Shown here piece by piece: positions 7,209 to 10,466 of a DNA stretch of 10,466 nucleotides; within the stretch, counting starts at the first letter, position 1, and each line of letters begins with the position of its first letter. A program made the translations under genes and the position numbers. Source of the stretch: a virus; IMG/VR virus record IMGVR_UViG_3300005614_000040, positions 64,001 through 74,466 of that record; one strand, given 5' to 3'. A model generated the notes under the pieces. It ran no database searches, had not been told where the DNA came from, and saw only the letters and a program-made list of their open reading frames with translations.

Positions 7209-7433
7209 CTATGCTTTTGGGATTGGTGGCGGTAAAGGGAGGGTGGAATGAAATTTTTGTGGAAGAACGGCCTGCAGCCAGTCGTAGAACCAGGTATAGA
7301 CGGTGAGCCACGACATCGGCGCGCCCGGGTGCGGCATCGTGCTGATGCCCGCCATGAAGAAATACCCGATTCCAAACGTAATTTTGGGGTGCGACGTTAG
7401 CCAGTCGATCAAAGTGGCGAGGAAGCAGTGCAT
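7209..7433 (-). CDS. Small protein with two hydrophobic segments (74 aa). Holin candidate.
   Basis: Segments ITFGIGYFFMAGIS and WLTVYTWFYDWLQAVL give a 2-TM topology. It has the typical holin size. It is the first gene after the terminator at 7484-7503 and lies upstream of the membrane-anchored proteins. Confidence 0.45.
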   Translation of the reverse strand: MHCFLATLIDWLTSHPKITFGIGYFFMAGISTMPHPGAPMSWLTVYTWFYDWLQAVLPQKFHSTLPLPPPIPKA

Positions 7434-7483
7434 GTCGAGGGCCTTACACCAGTGTGCAGGTCTAAGCCTCGCAGCGTAGAAAT

Positions 7484-7503
7484 GCGGGGGCCGAAGCCCC
7501 CGC
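7484..7503 (-). terminator. Probable rho-independent terminator following the 210-aa gene.
   Basis: A 7-bp G/C stem, GCGGGGG / CCCCCGC (7484-7503), encloses a CCGAAG loop. On the minus strand it is followed by ATTTCT. It begins 6 nt after the stop codon at 7509-7511. Confidence 0.55.
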
Positions 7504-7508
7504 TTGGG

Positions 7509-8141
7509 TTATGCGCGGTCGATCACGAACTCAGTTACGGTCACGCCGTTGACGCCAGCCGTTCCGAACGTAAAGCTCGGGATGAAGTTGAGGTCGCTCG
7601 CTCCAACGCTGGTAGCCTGGGTGATGACTTGGAATGTGCCAGCGGTTCCGGATGGGGTGCCAACTGCGATGTTGACGTTATTGATCTGGTAGGTCATAAC
7701 GCCGCCGTTCAGGGTCTTGGTCTTCGAATCCCAGAACAGCTTGGTTTCGATCAGGAAGCTCTGGGTTCCTGCGCCGCCCGAACTCGTCGCCGCGCCGACC
7801 CAGAGGGCGTTGCCCCCGGTGGGCACATTTGAAGAGTTAAGCTGCGTGCCAGCCGCGATGACGGAAGCAGGCATCTGGTACAGCTTCGGCTCGAAGGTGT
7901 AGCTTCCGGCCGTCAAAACCTTTCCGGCAAGACGCACGACGAACGCATGGCCGTCATACACGGAACCAGCGATGTCGGGCGGAAAAGCGGCGACCAGGCC
8001 GCTTCCAGCAGGAAACGCTGGGGATGGCAGGGTGCCGTAGTTGGTCGTGCTGCTCGGGGTGATAAGCCCGGTCTCGGTGTTTACTGTGATTGACTGAAGA
8101 GGGAGGTCCTGCCAGCCAGCGGTTGTGTTGGTGTTTGCCAC
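7509..8141 (-). CDS. Ser/Thr/Gly/Asn-rich beta-type protein (210 aa). Probable virion structural or decoration protein.
   Basis: Intact ORF with GTG start at 8139-8141. AAGGA lies 7 nt upstream. The composition resembles capsid, tail or decoration proteins. It is a monocistronic unit bounded by a hairpin upstream and a strong terminator downstream. Confidence 0.65.
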   Translation of the reverse strand: MANTNTTAGWQDLPLQSITVNTETGLITPSSTTNYGTLPSPAFPAGSGLVAAFPPDIAGSVYDGHAFVVRLAGKVLTAGSYTFEPKLYQMPASVIAAGTQLNSSNVPTGGNALWVGAATSSGGAGTQSFLIETKLFWDSKTKTLNGGVMTYQINNVNIAVGTPSGTAGTFQVITQATSVGASDLNFIPSFTFGTAGVNGVTVTEFVIDRA

Positions 8142-8160
8142 GGTCGTGTCCTTGTGAAAA

Positions 8161-8190
8161 TAGCTCAGACACCTTGCGGCAGTCTGAAAA
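8161..8190 (-). terminator. Possible weak terminator or processing hairpin between the tRNA block and the 210-aa gene.
   Basis: Inverted repeat TCAGAC...GTCTGA around 8164-8187. On the minus strand it is followed by AGCTATTTTCAC. Confidence 0.25.
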
Positions 8191-8206
8191 GAAATTGTCC
8201 AGAAAA

Positions 8207-8282
8207 TGGACTCGGCGGCGGGAATCCAACCCGCAACTACTCGGTTAGGAACCGAGGACCCATGCTTTTAGGTGACGCCGAG
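8207..8282 (-). tRNA. tRNA-Arg (anticodon CCU, decodes AGG).
   Basis: Hand fold, 76 nt. Acceptor CTCGGCG/CGCCGAG is a perfect 7 bp. D-stem ACCT/GGGT. Anticodon stem CTCGG/CCGAG with loop TTCCTAA. T-stem GCGGG/CCCGC. CCA is encoded. The D-loop has C19 and the T-loop has G56, a compensatory swap of the usual G19:C56 pair. Confidence 0.7.
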
Positions 8283-8283
8283 A

Positions 8284-8359
8284 TGGAGAACCCGCCCGGA
8301 TTCAAACCGGGATATCAACCTTCGGAGGGTTGTGCTCTATTCTTTTGAACTACGGGTTC
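8284..8359 (-). tRNA. tRNA-Arg (anticodon CCG, decodes CGG).
   Basis: Hand fold, 76 nt. Acceptor GAACCCG/CGGGTTC. Anticodon stem CAACC/GGTTG with loop CTCCGAA. T-stem CCCGG/CCGGG with loop TTTGAAT. CCA is encoded. An A19:U56 covariation is present. A 1-nt spacer separates it from the preceding tRNA. Confidence 0.7.
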
Positions 8360-8364
8360 GTAGG

Positions 8365-8439
8365 TGGGGCGCGGACGAGGATTCAAACCTCGGTTCAGGG
8401 CTTAGAAGGACCTGGCTTATTCCATTAGCTGATCCGCGC
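8365..8439 (-). tRNA. tRNA-Arg (anticodon UCU, decodes AGA). Probable.
   Basis: Hand fold, 75 nt. Acceptor GCGCGGA/TCCGCGC is perfect. T-arm CGAGG-TTTGAAT-CCTCG. D-loop has GG. Anticodon loop CTTCTAA. The anticodon stem has one U:C mismatch and the D-stem has 3 bp. Confidence 0.55.
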
Positions 8440-8605
8440 TTATTTCTTCGGAATGAATCCGCCGCGCGACGCGAAGTTAATGCTGAAAGGCCGGGTAACC
8501 TGGGTGGTACCGTTGTGGTACGTTACTTCGAGGGCCTTACCGCGTTCGAGTCTAGGAGTCATTATTTTGAATTGTACCACAGACAGAGAAATCTGTCAAG
8601 GAAAT

Positions 8606-8681
8606 TGGTGGGTCCGGAGGGAATCGAACCCTCATCACGTCGCTTAAAAGGCGGGTCTCTAGCCAGTTGAGTTACGAACCC
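8606..8681 (-). tRNA. tRNA-Lys (anticodon UUU) with an atypical, weak anticodon stem.
   Basis: Hand fold, 76 nt. Acceptor GGGTTCG/CGGACCC has one G:U. T-arm GAGGG-TTCGATT-CCCTC. D-loop has GG. Anticodon loop CTTTTAA with U33 and A37. The two outer base pairs of the anticodon stem are C:C and C:A mismatches. Confidence 0.55.
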
Positions 8682-8682
8682 T

Positions 8683-8759
8683 TGGTGCGCCGGGCTGGAT
8701 TTGAACCAGCATCATTCTCCTTAAGAGGGAGATATAATCAGCCGTTATACGACCGACGC
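8683..8759 (-). tRNA. tRNA-Lys (anticodon CUU).
   Basis: Hand fold, 77 nt. Acceptor GCGTCGG/CCGGCGC has one G:U. Anticodon stem TCTCC/GGAGA with loop CTCTTAA. T-arm GCTGG-TTCAAAT-CCAGC. CCA is encoded. Only 1 nt separates it from the preceding tRNA-Lys(UUU). Confidence 0.65.
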
Positions 8760-8761
8760 AA

Positions 8762-8855
8762 TGGTAGAGGAGGAGGGAATCGAACCCTTACTGGCATCGG
8801 TCATCTACCGACTACAGAGGCTATAAGGCTCCGCCGCGCGCCCGCGCTCTCCTCT
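8762..8855 (-). ncRNA. tRNA-like element (about 94 nt with CCA) with canonical 3' half but an aberrant 5' half and anticodon region. Possibly a degenerate long-variable-arm tRNA or a tRNA 3'-fragment.
   Basis: Textbook T-arm AAGGG-TTCGATT-CCCTC, acceptor 3' strand CTCCTCT, discriminator A and CCA. A perfectly complementary AGAGGAG lies 94 nt away, but both strands are low complexity. The intervening sequence is extremely GC-rich (CGCGGGCGCGCGGCGG). No anticodon loop with U33 carrying a Ser/Leu/Tyr anticodon could be drawn. The 5' 50 nt lie inside the 3' end of the GT2 coding sequence. Confidence 0.35.
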
Positions 8856-9479
8856 AAAAAATTCTTTCGGCAGACTATTCCTGTCCACCACAGGCCACCC
8901 TGTAGGTTTCTGGTTGGCGGAGTGGAGCACGCAAACCATATTATCACCTGCGGGTTTGGAAGTAAACCAAGGAAACGCCCGGTTCACAAAAATCAGGTCT
9001 TCGCCGTAGGAAACTTTTTCGTCGAACAGATGGCCGAGTGCCCACTGTCGGCGGTAAATCAGCGTTGCGCCCCACAAGCAACTACCCGAGTACCGCGACG
9101 CCTCGCCTGTGTTTTCGTTCCAAAAGTAACAGGAACCGTACCCACCCAGCTTCAATTCTTCCGCGCCCATCATTGCCACTTGATCGGCAAGGCGGTACGG
9201 AGAAGACCAATCGTCGGCATCAAAATGGCAGATAAACTCACCGCGCGCAACCCGAATACCTGCGTTTCGTTTTTCGGCAAGGTTCGCGGCTGGCTTGAAA
9301 ATGTAGGTGACACCTGGTACATCTTTGACCAGGTCGGCGATAGGTTCATCGCCGTCATCTACAACAATGAGTTCCTTGTTCGGCCAAGTCTGGGATAGGT
9401 AACACTCGATGGCGCGGACGACGCGACCTCGCATGTTGTGGTGACAAAGCAAAACCGACACCATCTCAGTTGTGGACAT
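8805..9479 (-). CDS. Glycosyltransferase family 2 (GT-A fold), 224 aa.
   Basis: The N-terminal beta1-alpha1 signature is VSVLLCHHNMRGRVVRAIECYLSQTWPNKELIVVDDGDEP, of the V-S-V-x-x-x-x-x-N ... E-I-I-V-V-D-D-G type. A downstream DXD-type motif FDADDW is present. The ATG at 9477-9479 overlaps the stop of the upstream GT by 14 nt. Confidence 0.75.
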   Translation of the reverse strand: MSTTEMVSVLLCHHNMRGRVVRAIECYLSQTWPNKELIVVDDGDEPIADLVKDVPGVTYIFKPAANLAEKRNAGIRVARGEFICHFDADDWSSPYRLADQVAMMGAEELKLGGYGSCYFWNENTGEASRYSGSCLWGATLIYRRQWALGHLFDEKVSYGEDLIFVNRAFPWFTSKPAGDNMVCVLHSANQKPTGWPVVDRNSLPKEFFRGERGRAAEPYSLCSR

Positions 9480-10077
9480 ACATCAAATCCCTGGCCACAC
9501 CCCACTTCAATTTCTTCGTCAAATCCTGCAGCGTTGTTCTGTCTACGCCGGAGCACGCGGGCACCAGGGGTTTGTTCAGCCAACCTTTGAACTTGGCGCG
9601 TTTCACTAAGAACGATGGCTTATATCCCGGAAAGCCGGGTTTGCCAAGCTGCAGGACTCGGTAGCCGTCAATTCCGCAGGTCTCAGGCCCGGTCAAGGTT
9701 GACTCACACAGCACCAGATCGAGATTATTCCTGACCGCCTCGGTCAACATTCTTTGTGTCCACTGCGGCGGATAGTAGCAGTCTTCGCAGGGAAAGCAAA
9801 CCCATTTACCTTTGGCCTGGTTAAGCCCGACTTCTGATGACCAGTAGCAGTCTGATACTTTGATCTTTCCGGCCGTTCGCAGATAGCGAAACCGCTTGTC
9901 CTTCAACTTCTCGACGATCCGCTTCTGCTGGTGCGCGACGGTTTTGTCTTCCGTGTTGTCGGTTACGATCACTTCGTAGTCTTCGTGGGTTTGACCCTTG
10001 ATTGACCACAAACACGCCGCCAGGAAATCTGGTCGATTGTAGAGCGAAACAACGTAGCTGACTTCGACCTGGGGCAT
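9466..10077 (-). CDS. Glycosyltransferase family 2-like (about 203 aa from MPQVEV).
   Basis: GT2 N-terminal signature EVSYVVSLYNRPDFLAACLWSIKGQTHEDYEVIVTDNTED. The ATG is at 10075-10077. The longer track ORF (to 10278) would run through the tRNA-Pro gene, so the internal start is preferred. Confidence 0.65.
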   Translation of the reverse strand: MPQVEVSYVVSLYNRPDFLAACLWSIKGQTHEDYEVIVTDNTEDKTVAHQQKRIVEKLKDKRFRYLRTAGKIKVSDCYWSSEVGLNQAKGKWVCFPCEDCYYPPQWTQRMLTEAVRNNLDLVLCESTLTGPETCGIDGYRVLQLGKPGFPGYKPSFLVKRAKFKGWLNKPLVPACSGVDRTTLQDLTKKLKWGVARDLMYVHN

Positions 10078-10234
10078 TTTTAATGGCACCGGACTGGCGA
10101 ATTGGACGCCACTCGGAGGTTTTGGAGACCTCTGTGATCCCAGATCGTCCGGCAAAAATGGAGCACCCGAGTGGAGTCTAACCACCGTCTCGATGTTCGT
10201 AGCATCGTGTCCTATACGTTGAACGACAGGCGCA

Positions 10235-10310
10235 TGGTCGGAAAGGTGAGATTCGAACTCACGTCGTCTCGCTCCCAAAGCGAGTGCCTAAGCCTCTAGG
10301 CTACTTTCCG
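10235..10310 (-). tRNA. tRNA-Pro (anticodon UGG).
   Basis: Fully canonical hand fold, 76 nt. Acceptor CGGAAAG/CTTTCCG. D-stem GCCT/AGGC with GG in the loop. Anticodon stem CTCGC/GCGAG with loop TTTGGGA. T-arm GTGAG-TTCGAAT-CTCAC. Discriminator A and CCA are encoded. Confidence 0.85.
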
Positions 10311-10315
10311 AAAAA

Positions 10316-10402
10316 TGGTCTAGGTAGCTGGATTTGAACCAGCGTAACCCCGAAGGGACACGTTCCCGAAACGTGTGGCAGACCGGACTTGCCGATACCT
10401 AG
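10316..10402 (-). tRNA. Type-II (long variable arm) tRNA, 87 nt, whose anticodon reads CGG by hand folding. This is a proline-codon anticodon on a Ser/Leu-type body.
   Basis: Acceptor CTAGGTA/TACCTAG is perfect. D-stem is 3 bp (GGC/GCC) with an 11-nt loop containing GG. Anticodon stem CACGT/ACGTG with loop TTCGGGA, so positions 34-36 are CGG. The variable arm is CCC-TTCG-GGG. T-arm GCTGG-TTCAAAT-CCAGC. Discriminator A and CCA. Confidence 0.55.
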
Positions 10403-10403
10403 A

Positions 10404-10466
10404 TGGTGCCAACTCAGGGAGTTCAACCCTGCTCTACTGTGCTTCAAACAGTCGTAGCGAGCGCGT
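10404..10466 (-). tRNA. tRNA-Phe (anticodon GAA), truncated by the window edge. The 3' 63 nt are visible.
   Basis: T-arm CAGGG-TTGAACT-CCCTG. Acceptor 3' strand AGTTGGC plus A and CCA. Anticodon stem ACTGT/ACAGT with loop TTGAAGC. It begins 1 nt after the preceding tRNA. Confidence 0.5.

Follow-up and report, generated by a model that had tools for sequence, protein, structure and literature searches.

Here, we describe a five-armed transfer RNA (tRNA) encoded in a phage tRNA array. The stretch of DNA analysed, referred to below as the window, comprises 10,466 nucleotides (nt) of IMG/VR record IMGVR_UViG_3300005614_000040 and ends a metagenomic phage contig 74.5 kb long (ENA ERZ27252105 k141_4674152), of which it is the final 10.5 kb; a Logan contig of 3.1 kb, from a second run, is identical to it across the region. 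On the minus strand of the window, at positions 8762..8855, lies a 94-nt gene, including its encoded CCA, for a tRNA with the anticodon UAU. It is a non-canonical yet genuine phage tRNA gene reading AUA and a member of a widespread and hitherto uncurated family of five-armed tRNAs with this anticodon, in which an extra arm with an invariant GAU in its loop stands between the anticodon arm and the T arm. On balance, we lean towards the explanation that the tRNA decodes AUA while its fifth arm mimics the anticodon arm of the major isoleucine tRNA.

The AUA codon is a difficult one in bacteria, which normally depend on the essential enzyme TilS to convert C34 of the decoding tRNA to lysidine, while a plain UAU anticodon is poorly accepted by typical isoleucyl-tRNA synthetase (IleRS) and can misread AUG. 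A phage tRNA bringing its own synthetase handle would, if the proposed role is true, explain how an AUA decoder can work in many hosts. Aminoacylation identity would in that case reside in an anticodon copy outside the decoding arm, something rarely met in nature and of direct bearing on tRNA identity rules, the design of orthogonal tRNAs and genetic-code engineering.

Fold and detection of the element

Read from 8855 to 8762 on the minus strand, the RNA is 5'-AGAGGAGAGCGCGGGCGCGCGGCGGAGCCUUAUAGCCUCUGUAGUCGGUAGAUGACCGAUGCCAGUAAGGGUUCGAUUCCCUCCUCCUCUACCA-3', with tRNA nucleotide n at window position 8856-n. Its acceptor stem begins with A1-U72 and is formed by AGAGGAG (8849..8855) and CUCCUCU (8772-8766), with seven of seven pairs Watson-Crick; the discriminator A73 (8765) and the encoded CCA (8764-8762) complete the 3' segment at 8762..8772. 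The D arm (8836..8847) is reduced to a 4-bp stem, GCGC/GCGC (8847-8844 with 8839-8836), and a GGGC tetraloop (8843-8840), flanked in the covariance model (CM) alignment by a single linker A (8848) before it and GG (8835-8834) after it. The decoding anticodon arm (8815..8833) consists of the stem CGGAG/CUCUG (8833-8829 with 8819-8815) and the loop CCUUAUAGC (8828-8820), which in standard numbering resolves into a C31.C39 mismatch and a 7-nt loop, C32 U33 U34 A35 U36 A37 G38. The anticodon UAU, which reads AUA, thus lies at 8823..8825 (ARAGORN anticodon position 31), and a C26-G44 pair caps the stem. The extra ('variable') arm follows at 8796..8812; its 17 nt make a 5-bp stem, GUCGG/CCGAU (8812-8808 with 8800-8796), and a 7-nt loop, UAGAUGA (8807-8801), with GAU at 8805-8803. 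The 6-nt linker GCCAGU (8790..8795) then takes the place of the ordinary variable loop, and the T arm (8773..8789) has the stem AAGGG/CCCUC, with four base pairs and an A.C first pair, and the loop UUCGAUU. Altogether, 25 of the 26 modelled pairs are intact in the window copy. The hallmarks of a canonical tRNA are thus present in the acceptor stem (7/7), the T stem (4/5), the loop with U33 and A37, A73 and the CCA. The D arm departs from the canonical one, with one linker nucleotide where two (8 and 9) are usual and with 4 nt in place of an 8-11-nt loop carrying G18 and G19.

An earlier reading made from the letters alone (the sequence-only reading) had placed a tRNA-like element at exactly these coordinates; the RNA, however, is that of the minus strand, with its 5' end at 8855. 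The perfectly complementary 5' acceptor strand and the GC-rich tract that it pointed out are both real, the latter being the GCGC-GGGC-GCGC of the D stem and tetraloop. Its 'flawless' tRNA 3' half holds for the acceptor strand, discriminator, CCA and T loop; the T stem has only four pairs and begins with the A.C mismatch. Its claim that no U33-containing anticodon loop could be drawn is wrong, nucleotides 28-36 reading C-C-U-U-A-U-A-G-C and the UAU loop (8825-8823) being drawn by a relaxed ARAGORN search.

The element escapes standard annotation. At default settings ARAGORN makes no call there, and Rfam searches of the whole window and of a 111-nt sub-window return nothing at threshold, the only matches being sub-threshold ones to transfer-messenger RNA (tmRNA) and tRNA-like elements. 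The best of these, to tmRNA (RF00023), scores 12.3 bits against a gathering threshold of 47, and the gathering threshold of the tRNA model (RF00005) is 29. Both programs miss the element because of its 4-bp/tetraloop D arm combined with the fifth arm. When the ARAGORN threshold is lowered to 80% (-ps80), a 94-nt tRNA(tat) with the 7-nt loop C-U-UAU-A-G and a long variable arm is reported. The tmRNA mode of the program finds nothing at the element; its intron mode gives a meaningless tRNA-Tyr(ata) with a 2-nt intron, and its mitochondrial mode only spurious fragments. With tmRNA the element shares an acceptor stem, T arm, discriminator A, CCA and a long interior, from which it differs by A3-U70 instead of G3.U70, by having neither a tag-encoding open reading frame (ORF) nor pseudoknots, and by its length (94 nt vs a 374-position model). 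Folding of the single sequence is unremarkable (z = -1.18), and an exact 28-mer from the 3' half has no match in IMG/VR.

Models built from the family itself recognize the element readily. A five-helix CM built from 27 members with the short D arm (R1) gives it 82.1 bits. A second CM (R2) was built from 72 members, leaving out the window and its five nearest relatives (L053, L020, L035, L054 and L324; sequences and proteins used for comparison are cited by L and P numbers); it scores 8855-8762(-) at 71.5 bits (E = 1.8e-14), and the window's ordinary tRNAs at no more than 38.9 bits. The lack of a covariance-model hit, which the sequence-only reading would have counted against its element, is therefore a false negative, since only curated models fail on it. 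The gene is also in register in the array, as it encodes its CCA like its neighbours and ends 2 nt before the next array gene downstream, tRNA-Lys(CUU) (8683..8759, minus), which served as the synteny anchor. The element is a bona fide member of a structurally constrained tRNA family, and we are confident that it is a genuine tRNA(UAU) of the five-armed type.

A widespread family with covarying helices

More than 150 distinct relatives were found in IMG/VR contigs, in Lactobacillus phage isolates and in bacterial genomes (Acidobacteriota and Xanthomonadales). Scanning IMG/VR for a UAU loop followed by UAGAUG and a T loop recovered 29 contigs. A UAU loop followed after 32-50 nt by a T loop recovered at least 120 contigs, with 102 unique cores among the matches listed, most of them family members, and the extra loop AGATDA followed by a T arm and ACCA, with the first arm left free, likewise recovered at least 120. 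From these scans, 69 unique full-length members were parsed, and they fall into three subtypes by their D arm: a canonical one, the short arm of 4 bp and a tetraloop found in the window, and a third with the D region TTGCTAATATTGG. A73 is present in 67 of the 69 and the CCA is encoded in 57; pair 1-72 is G.U in 44 members and A-U in 10, and pair 31-39 is mismatched in 46.

Among cultured phages, members occur in Lactobacillus Herelleviridae, unannotated in LpeD and annotated as tRNA-Ile in ENFP1, and BLAST found nothing among isolated phages that matches the commonest member with the short D arm. Pattern matches were found in the genomes of 53 bacterial species, at least three of them by chance (L292, L295 and L298). 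In Pyrinomonadaceae and Blastocatellia the gene lies inside chromosomal tRNA arrays, and Rhodobacteraceae and others also have it. Near-identical copies are spread across Stenotrophomonas, Xanthomonas, Luteimonas and Lysobacter and occur also in a Thiobacillus metagenome-assembled genome (MAG); they include L315 3300-3393, on the chromosome of Stenotrophomonas sp. S11A1a, as well as L281-L283, L288, L296, L310, L311 and L328. The presence of such copies in different genera of Xanthomonadales suggests carriage by mobile elements. For the L315 copy, default ARAGORN reports a 73-nt tRNA-Ile(gat), having mistaken the extra arm for the anticodon arm. Since default ARAGORN and Rfam miss the short-D-arm subtype, as in the window, and this one bacterial copy is miscalled, tRNA inventories of phages and MAGs, and codon-usage analyses built on them, under-count AUA decoders.

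Covariation was assessed on 74 matches aligned by CM R1, forming 72 distinct rows. Standard pairs are formed in 93.2% of cells, compared with 56.7% after shuffling (none of 500 shuffles reaches the observed value) and 38-48% when partners are slid, and 24 of the 26 pairs show double-sided changes. All seven acceptor pairs change on both sides; the D helix is 90% paired with four of four pairs covarying, the anticodon helix is 92% and the T helix 98.9% paired. In the extra arm, pairing is 100% at the three inner pairs, which show 12-39 double changes. RNAalifold returns the same five helices. The first-arm loop of the family has the form Y-U-UAU-A-N; its stretch U33-A37 is invariant in the 74 aligned members, most of which were gathered with patterns specifying it.

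The gene also keeps its place in related phages. We examined relatives of the window phage's large terminase (TerL; 51-68% identity) with 10-kb flanks, and in those that include the array its order is kept: Pro(UGG), Arg(ACG), Trp, X, Lys(CUU), Lys(UUU), Arg(UCU), Arg(CCU), Arg(CCG), apart from L019, which lacks Lys(UUU) in the stretch, and L023, where one ORF stands between X and Lys(CUU). Position X is a 92-nt tRNA(UAU) in L019 and a 91-nt one in L020 (given by ARAGORN as 94 nt with a mispaired acceptor stem). In L023 (2720-2810) it is again 91 nt, found solely by the custom CM (62.7 bits), and in L024 the contig opens with a 3' fragment of it, 3 nt ahead of Lys(CUU). The L023 member has an aberrant T loop, GGGCGGCACC instead of GGTTCGAATCC, and retains the five helices, UAU and an extra loop, CAGAUUA. 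In L021 and L022, X is a canonical 77-nt tRNA-Ile(UAU) with C4-G69, U12-A23, C29-G41, A37, A38 and A73, so that at this locus the five-armed tRNA replaces, or is replaced by, a standard tRNA-Ile(UAU). The order X(UAU), Lys(CUU) is shared by the window, L019, L020, L021, L053 and L324. Between the window and L020, the acceptor and D regions are wholly different and the anticodon and extra arms nearly identical, with a compensatory G-C to A-U change in this near-identical part. Closer copies come from L053, an IMG/VR contig, and from L324, a contig of 21 kb that was binned with a Granulicella MAG and has 26 tRNAs in the same order; these two point to a host in the Acidobacteriaceae. The flanks of two further TerL relatives, L025 and L026, hold no comparable array. 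Loci anchored on the portal gene in IMG/VR were too distant for comparison, and the array of L012 is without a family member in the part fetched.

These observations bear on three further proposals of the sequence-only reading: that the element is a tRNA 3' fragment serving as an attP core, that it is only a signal for processing by RNase P or Z, or that it reflects chance complementarity of purine and pyrimidine runs. The failure of every Rfam family to reach threshold and the unremarkable folding score would suit any of them, and the last might have been favoured had glycosyltransferase homologues kept the same C-terminal tail without a tRNA-like signal. What is conserved and covaries, however, is a full-length molecule of five helices in register with its array, and its homologues are always whole tRNAs within tRNA arrays. 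In addition, no integrase domain occurs among the nine window ORFs scanned, and specific support for a processing signal is wanting: the invariance of U33-U34-A35-U36-A37 (in the 74 aligned members, most of them pattern-selected for it) would be unexplained if the element were a mere RNase P/Z handle. Homologues of the overlapping glycosyltransferase elsewhere have no adjacent tRNA-like signal. We therefore consider all three proposals very improbable.

A decaying pseudo-tRNA, or a regulatory or decoy RNA without a part in translation, as suggested for most allo-tRNA(UAU) genes (Mukai et al. 2017, Nucleic Acids Research (NAR) 45:2776; PMC5389517), deserves more weight. The window copy has the A.C pair in the T stem, C.C at 31-39 and a minimal D arm, a glycosyltransferase ORF extends into it, and imperfect T stems are seen also in L035 and L053, the relatives nearest to it. 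A parallel is offered by an Edaphobacter allo-tRNA(UAU) pseudogene that overlaps an ORF and by the inactive variants described in the same source (Mukai et al., PMC5389517). Yet the 31-39 mismatch is the majority state of the family rather than a private defect, 25 of the 26 modelled pairs are intact in this very copy, and every helix shows compensatory change across the family. The U33...A37 loop is invariant in the aligned members, subject to the selection by pattern already noted, the CCA is encoded, and tight spacing and position in the array are kept at just 51-68% TerL identity. Intact pairs, compensatory changes, invariant loop, CCA and conserved position argue for purifying selection on a decoding-competent tRNA shape, and we regard an untranslated role as unlikely.

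The GAU-loop arm and the amino acid identity of the tRNA

The extra arm of the family has a stem of 4-6 bp, a loop of 7 nt and a 3' linker of 5 nt in 47 of the 69 members and of 4-6 nt in 66; these dimensions are those of an anticodon arm, not of the usual variable arm. In class II tRNAs, the loop of the variable arm is short, about 3-5 nt, and has no conserved sequence, and few nucleotides beside the arm are left unpaired. With the bacterial class II tRNAs (Leu, Ser, Tyr and Sec) the family shares a helix between the anticodon and T stems and a length in the range of 85-95 nt; unlike them, its 4-6-bp stem, conserved 7-nt loop and linker of about 5 nt amount to an anticodon arm followed by an ordinary variable loop.

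The loop sequence is equally distinctive. In 46 unique members collected with the extra arm unconstrained, its first five positions are Y (46/46), A (43), G (46), A (46) and U (46), and the last two are D (U in 32, A in 12, G in 2) and R (A in 41, G in 5), so that GAU is invariant. C-G is found at the stem pair equivalent to 31-39 in 38 of these members and at the one equivalent to 29-41 in 32. In E. coli, the anticodon arm of tRNA-Ile(GAU) is CACCC-CUGAUAA-GGGUG, a sequence confirmed in 5,408 genomes, and the extra arm matches it, including the equivalent of C29-G41, a listed IleRS determinant; the extra arm of the window (GUCGG/CCGAU) has this pair. A rarer, canonical form of the extra loop, CUGAUUA, with U at the 33-equivalent, occurs in 14 contigs (four unique sequences).

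Moreover, the extra arm is almost confined to tRNAs with the anticodon UAU. Of 151 unique sequences among the matches listed for the reverse scan, which specified the extra loop, T arm and ACCA, 144 have UAU, as UUAUA in 140 and in variant loops in four. The hairpins of the other over-long class I tRNAs in the arrays are plain UUCG, GAAA or UAAU ones, which makes the GAU loop specific to the UAU tRNA. Such tRNAs of 86-89 nt are a feature of this phage group (Pro(CGG), Arg(ACG), Gln(UUG) and Asn(GUU); in relatives at L020 561-646, L021 1112-1200, 1322-1410 and 3909-3997, and L019 2735-2820); in the window, Pro(CGG) (10316-10402, minus), normally a class I tRNA, reaches 87 nt by an added variable-region hairpin.

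As a separate observation, tRNA arrays of phages or bacteria also contain tRNA-Ile(GAU) genes of canonical length that lack U33 (L053 2153-2226, with the loop CCGAUUA, and L319 1900-1973, with UCGAUAA), and L192 has a 76-nt tRNA ending ...GGCGCTGCACCA with CAGAUAA in an apparent 8-nt loop. The loop variants of these three are those seen in the extra arm of the UAU tRNAs.

The mechanism that we propose would run as follows. The tRNA would be transcribed on the minus strand within the array, together with the upstream genes for family GT2 glycosyltransferases; RNase P would free the 5' end at 8855/8856, the CCA being already encoded. The first anticodon arm (C32 U33 UAU A37) would decode the rare AUA codon on the ribosome, while the extra arm, with its 5-bp stem and UAGAUGA loop, would act as a copy of the anticodon arm of the major tRNA-Ile(GAU). 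By reading the surrogate GAU loop and A73, an IleRS that is poor at UAU would still attach isoleucine, and TilS and lysidine would be unneeded. That the element is an isoleucine-accepting AUA decoder is, judging from its sequence features, probable. That the extra arm works specifically as a surrogate anticodon for IleRS we put forward more tentatively, as an idea with somewhat less than an even chance. It is conceivable, with a slightly smaller chance still, that two anticodon jobs are split here between a UAU arm for the ribosome and a decoding-crippled GAU arm for IleRS, in a natural and horizontally spreading solution to the AUA problem; a solution of this kind, free of TilS, lysidine and an adapted IleRS, may possibly be in use in many phages and in some Acidobacteriota and Xanthomonadales. 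The two arms might even exchange places at the five-way junction.

The rationale for such an arrangement comes from published work. E. coli IleRS charges tRNA-Ile(UAU) inefficiently, GAU and LAU (lysidine at position 34) having been included as substrate variants, UAU tRNAs can misread AUG on E. coli ribosomes, and M. mobile IleRS charges the UAU anticodon through Arg865 (PMC3575796). M. mobile thus solves recognition in the enzyme, whereas the family described here carries a GAU arm on the tRNA. With the canonical tRNA-Ile(UAU), represented by M. mobile tRNA-Ile2 and by the 77-nt genes of L021 and L022, the family has UAU, U33, A37, A73 and a TilS-independent AUA role in common; where the canonical form stops at four arms, its D arm being normal and its variable loop 5 nt long, the family adds the GAU-loop arm.

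The strong determinants of isoleucine identity are A73 and the anticodon, and the minor ones comprise C4-G69, U12-A23(G23) and C29-G41 together with G16, D20 and D21 in the D loop (PMC9976931). The window tRNA has A73 (8765), and its decoding arm has U34 A35 U36 in place of G34 or lysidine-34 with A35 U36, the GAU standing in the extra loop (8805-8803) instead.

A number of observations weigh against an isoleucine-accepting tRNA with a working anticodon mimic. The window subtype has neither C4-G69 nor U12-A23 and none of the D-loop determinants (G16, D20 and D21); the window copy has G4-C69 and, in the decoding arm, A29-U41, whereas in the short L021 orthologue the three stem determinants are all present. 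At its 33-equivalent the extra loop mostly carries A, not U, and its 37-equivalent is U or G more often than A, so that N6-threonylcarbamoyladenosine at position 37 (t6A37), a determinant for bacterial IleRS, is mostly impossible there. The window copy itself could be a weakened one, considering its A.C pair in the T stem and the C.C mismatch at 31-39. AUA accounts for only 7 of 159 isoleucine codons in the window's own genes, so that the benefit of decoding it would be small. L021 and L022 manage with the short canonical tRNA-Ile(UAU), without the arm. Finally, six allo-tRNA(UAU) variants converted to CUA were reported to be inactive in an E. coli CAT Ser146TAG assay (PMC5389517); this reporter accepts only serine or alanine at position 146, and insertion of isoleucine would thus be expected to go undetected.

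The departures of the loop from a true isoleucine loop at the 33- (A) and 37-equivalents (U/G) would also fit a tRNA that accepts isoleucine and decodes AUA but whose GAU loop serves some partner or role other than IleRS, for instance as a tertiary contact for a core with a minimal D arm, as a dock for an enzyme modifying U34 to prevent misreading of AUG, or as protection from a host nuclease. Under this alternative the family and its UAU anticodon would be just as solid; a fidelity device would be useful to a tRNA whose anticodon can misread AUG on E. coli ribosomes (PMC3575796), and members with the canonical D arm, which keep U12-A23 and in many cases C4-G69, might be charged in the ordinary way. 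It leaves unexplained, however, why the invariant triplet is exactly the isoleucine anticodon and why the flanking pairs mirror C29-G41 and C31-G39 of tRNA-Ile, and no candidate partner gene is conserved beside the tRNA, its neighbours being tRNAs. We rate it as clearly less probable than isoleucylation aided by the mimic, and still as the most serious of the alternatives.

A lower standing is given to the idea that the molecule is a class II-type tRNA charged by an anticodon-blind synthetase, most likely leucyl-tRNA synthetase (LeuRS), with AUA partly recoded to leucine in infected cells, a recoding already proposed for the nematode nev-tRNA-Ile(UAU). Its long extra arm and the A73 of 67 of the 69 members fit, A73 being the key LeuRS determinant and a listed antideterminant for seryl-tRNA synthetase (SerRS) in work on human tRNA-Leu. 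Nematode nev-tRNAs with a V arm and UAU are leucylated in vitro, and allo-tRNAs put serine or alanine at non-cognate codons (PMC3333845 and PMC4300185; PMC5389517). Nev-tRNA-Ile(UAU), a functional analogue from another lineage, also resembles the present family in that its anticodon does not fit its tRNA class. It is a eukaryotic derivative of tRNA-Leu with no evolutionary relation to the family, and the parts of the reports consulted mention no GAU loop in its V arm (PMC3333845, PMC4300185). Against charging by LeuRS, an invariant GAU in a 7-nt loop is needed neither by this enzyme nor by SerRS or tyrosyl-tRNA synthetase (TyrRS), and the arm is tied to UAU (the 144 of 151 listed sequences), whereas anticodon-blind charging would allow many anticodons, as in allo-tRNAs, which cover 35 codons. 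The positional orthologue in L021 and L022 is moreover a textbook tRNA-Ile(UAU), and the 4-nt D loop of the window subtype is unlike that of tRNA-Leu. Leucylation is thus improbable in our estimate, and isoleucylation with the help of the GAU arm remains the account that we prefer.

The closest group described so far is allo-tRNA(UAU) (Mukai et al., PMC5389517). Like the window family, it combines the anticodon UAU with a long extra arm and has a tetraloop on its D stem; it is likewise missed or mis-scored by standard models and occurs in acidobacterial and soil metagenomes and in phage tRNA clusters. Stem mismatches, 'possible five-stem-junction structures' and one copy overlapping an ORF are reported as well. 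The acidobacterial link has its counterpart here in the nearest relatives on the Granulicella MAG contig and in the likeness of the window phage to a Tunturiibacter phage. Allo-tRNA traits found in the window are the 17-nt extra arm, the 4-bp/tetraloop D arm and an anticodon stem extended by C26-G44. Allo-tRNAs, however, have 8/4 or 9/3 acceptor/T stems, hence a 12-bp branch, and mostly G73 or U73 (serine identity), whereas the window family has 7/5 and A73. In the window, where the T stem of the 7/5 branch begins with A.C, any eighth pair of the acceptor would have to be A8.C65, and the close relatives L020 and L054 have a clean 7/5. The family was therefore not filed as allo-tRNA, the two groups having been compared by description only. 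Moreover, the accounts of allo-tRNA(UAU), as far as seen, mention neither a conserved GAU loop nor a mimic of the isoleucine anticodon. A full-text literature search of limited coverage likewise found no description of a GAU-loop extra arm in a bacterial or phage tRNA(UAU).

Hand drawings of the window element with 8/4 (allo-tRNA) and 8/5 (tRNA-Sec) branches were rejected, as the eighth pair is A.C and the anticodon is not UCA.

The overlapping glycosyltransferase gene and the tRNA array

The 5' half of the tRNA gene overlaps a GT2 glycosyltransferase ORF of 224 amino acids (aa) (8805..9479, minus; Pfam PF00535, E = 7.8e-19). The overlap noted by the sequence-only reading is thus real: the ORF extends 51 nt into the element, which supplies its final 16 codons and stop (8855-8805; residues RGERGRAAEPYSLCSR), and the stop UAG (8807-8805) makes up the first three bases of the extra-arm loop. 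That reading had also suggested a highly divergent long-arm tRNA constrained by dual coding; the tRNA part of this proposal was essentially right, and the proposed cause is not supported. The same architecture, with a short GC-rich D arm, a UAU arm and a long extra arm, is found in L020, L053, L035, L324 and dozens more contigs, and the gene tables of L019 and L020 show no called ORF reaching more than 3 nt into the tRNA. In an alignment with GT2 homologues (45-48% identity), invariant columns end with L203, P204 and F207, whereas the element begins at codon 209; the homologues found in GT2-anchored searches belong to morphogenesis modules of unrelated phages and have no tRNA-like signal nearby. 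By these comparisons, the GT2 gene and the tRNA are independent modules. We conclude that a GT2 cassette was inserted directly upstream of a pre-existing tRNA gene, into which it reads, and that the RNA was not shaped by dual coding.

The stretch between the GT2 genes and the element is free of sigma-70-like promoters, the sole strong one in the region being downstream of the element (8599-8571); the tRNA is therefore probably co-transcribed with GT2. In that case a cut by RNase P at 8855/8856 would strip the last 16 codons and the stop from the GT2 message, which would make tRNA maturation and full-length GT2 translation mutually exclusive for any one transcript. The two tandem GT2 genes (9466-10158 and 8805-9479, minus) overlap by 14 nt and are flanked by tRNA-Arg(ACG) and the UAU tRNA, an interval that in relatives holds tRNA-Trp; in the window, no gene for tRNA-Trp was found.

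All window genes examined are on the minus strand, and the GC content of the window is 55%. The phage has a portal of the SU10 type and a 660-aa ORF identified as TerL; its closest isolate by portal is Tunturi_3, a phage of Tunturiibacter (Acidobacteriota), at 31.7% identity, and megablast of 7400-10466 against isolated phages gave no match. Default ARAGORN and Rfam call eight tRNAs in the window, all on the minus strand: Pro(CGG), Pro(UGG) and Arg(ACG) (10402-10159), Lys(CUU) and Lys(UUU) (8759-8606), and Arg(UCU), Arg(CCG) and Arg(CCU) (8439-8207), the first and second groups being separated by the two GT2 ORFs. The array thereby also provides decoders for AGA and AGG, codons as rare as AUA.

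The promoter downstream of the element is near-consensus (TTGACA-17 nt-TACAAT with an extended -10 TG, 11/12 matches; 8599-8571, minus). A 39-codon ORF (8562-8443, minus) begins with an ATG 9 nt past the -10 hexamer and stops 3 nt short of tRNA-Arg(UCU); its message would be leaderless or almost leaderless.

In related phages, a TROVE/Ro60-like vWA protein is encoded a few kilobases from the array (L020 3064-4407, L021 6344-7687, L022 2550-3893 and L023 6695-8059), and the window has no such gene. Bacterial Ro60 orthologues bind Y RNAs bearing a tRNA-like module. In L023, a 95-kb phage contig, a 96-aa ORF with an RF-1 (peptide chain release factor) domain (168-458) adjoins the array. Finally, the TerL homologues P0018 (957 aa), P0019 (925 aa), P0050 and P0078 (about 1000 aa) are some 300 aa longer than the 660-aa TerL of the window, and P0050 and P0078 carry a LAGLIDADG_3 domain, consistent with an intein or a homing-endonuclease insertion in the terminase gene.

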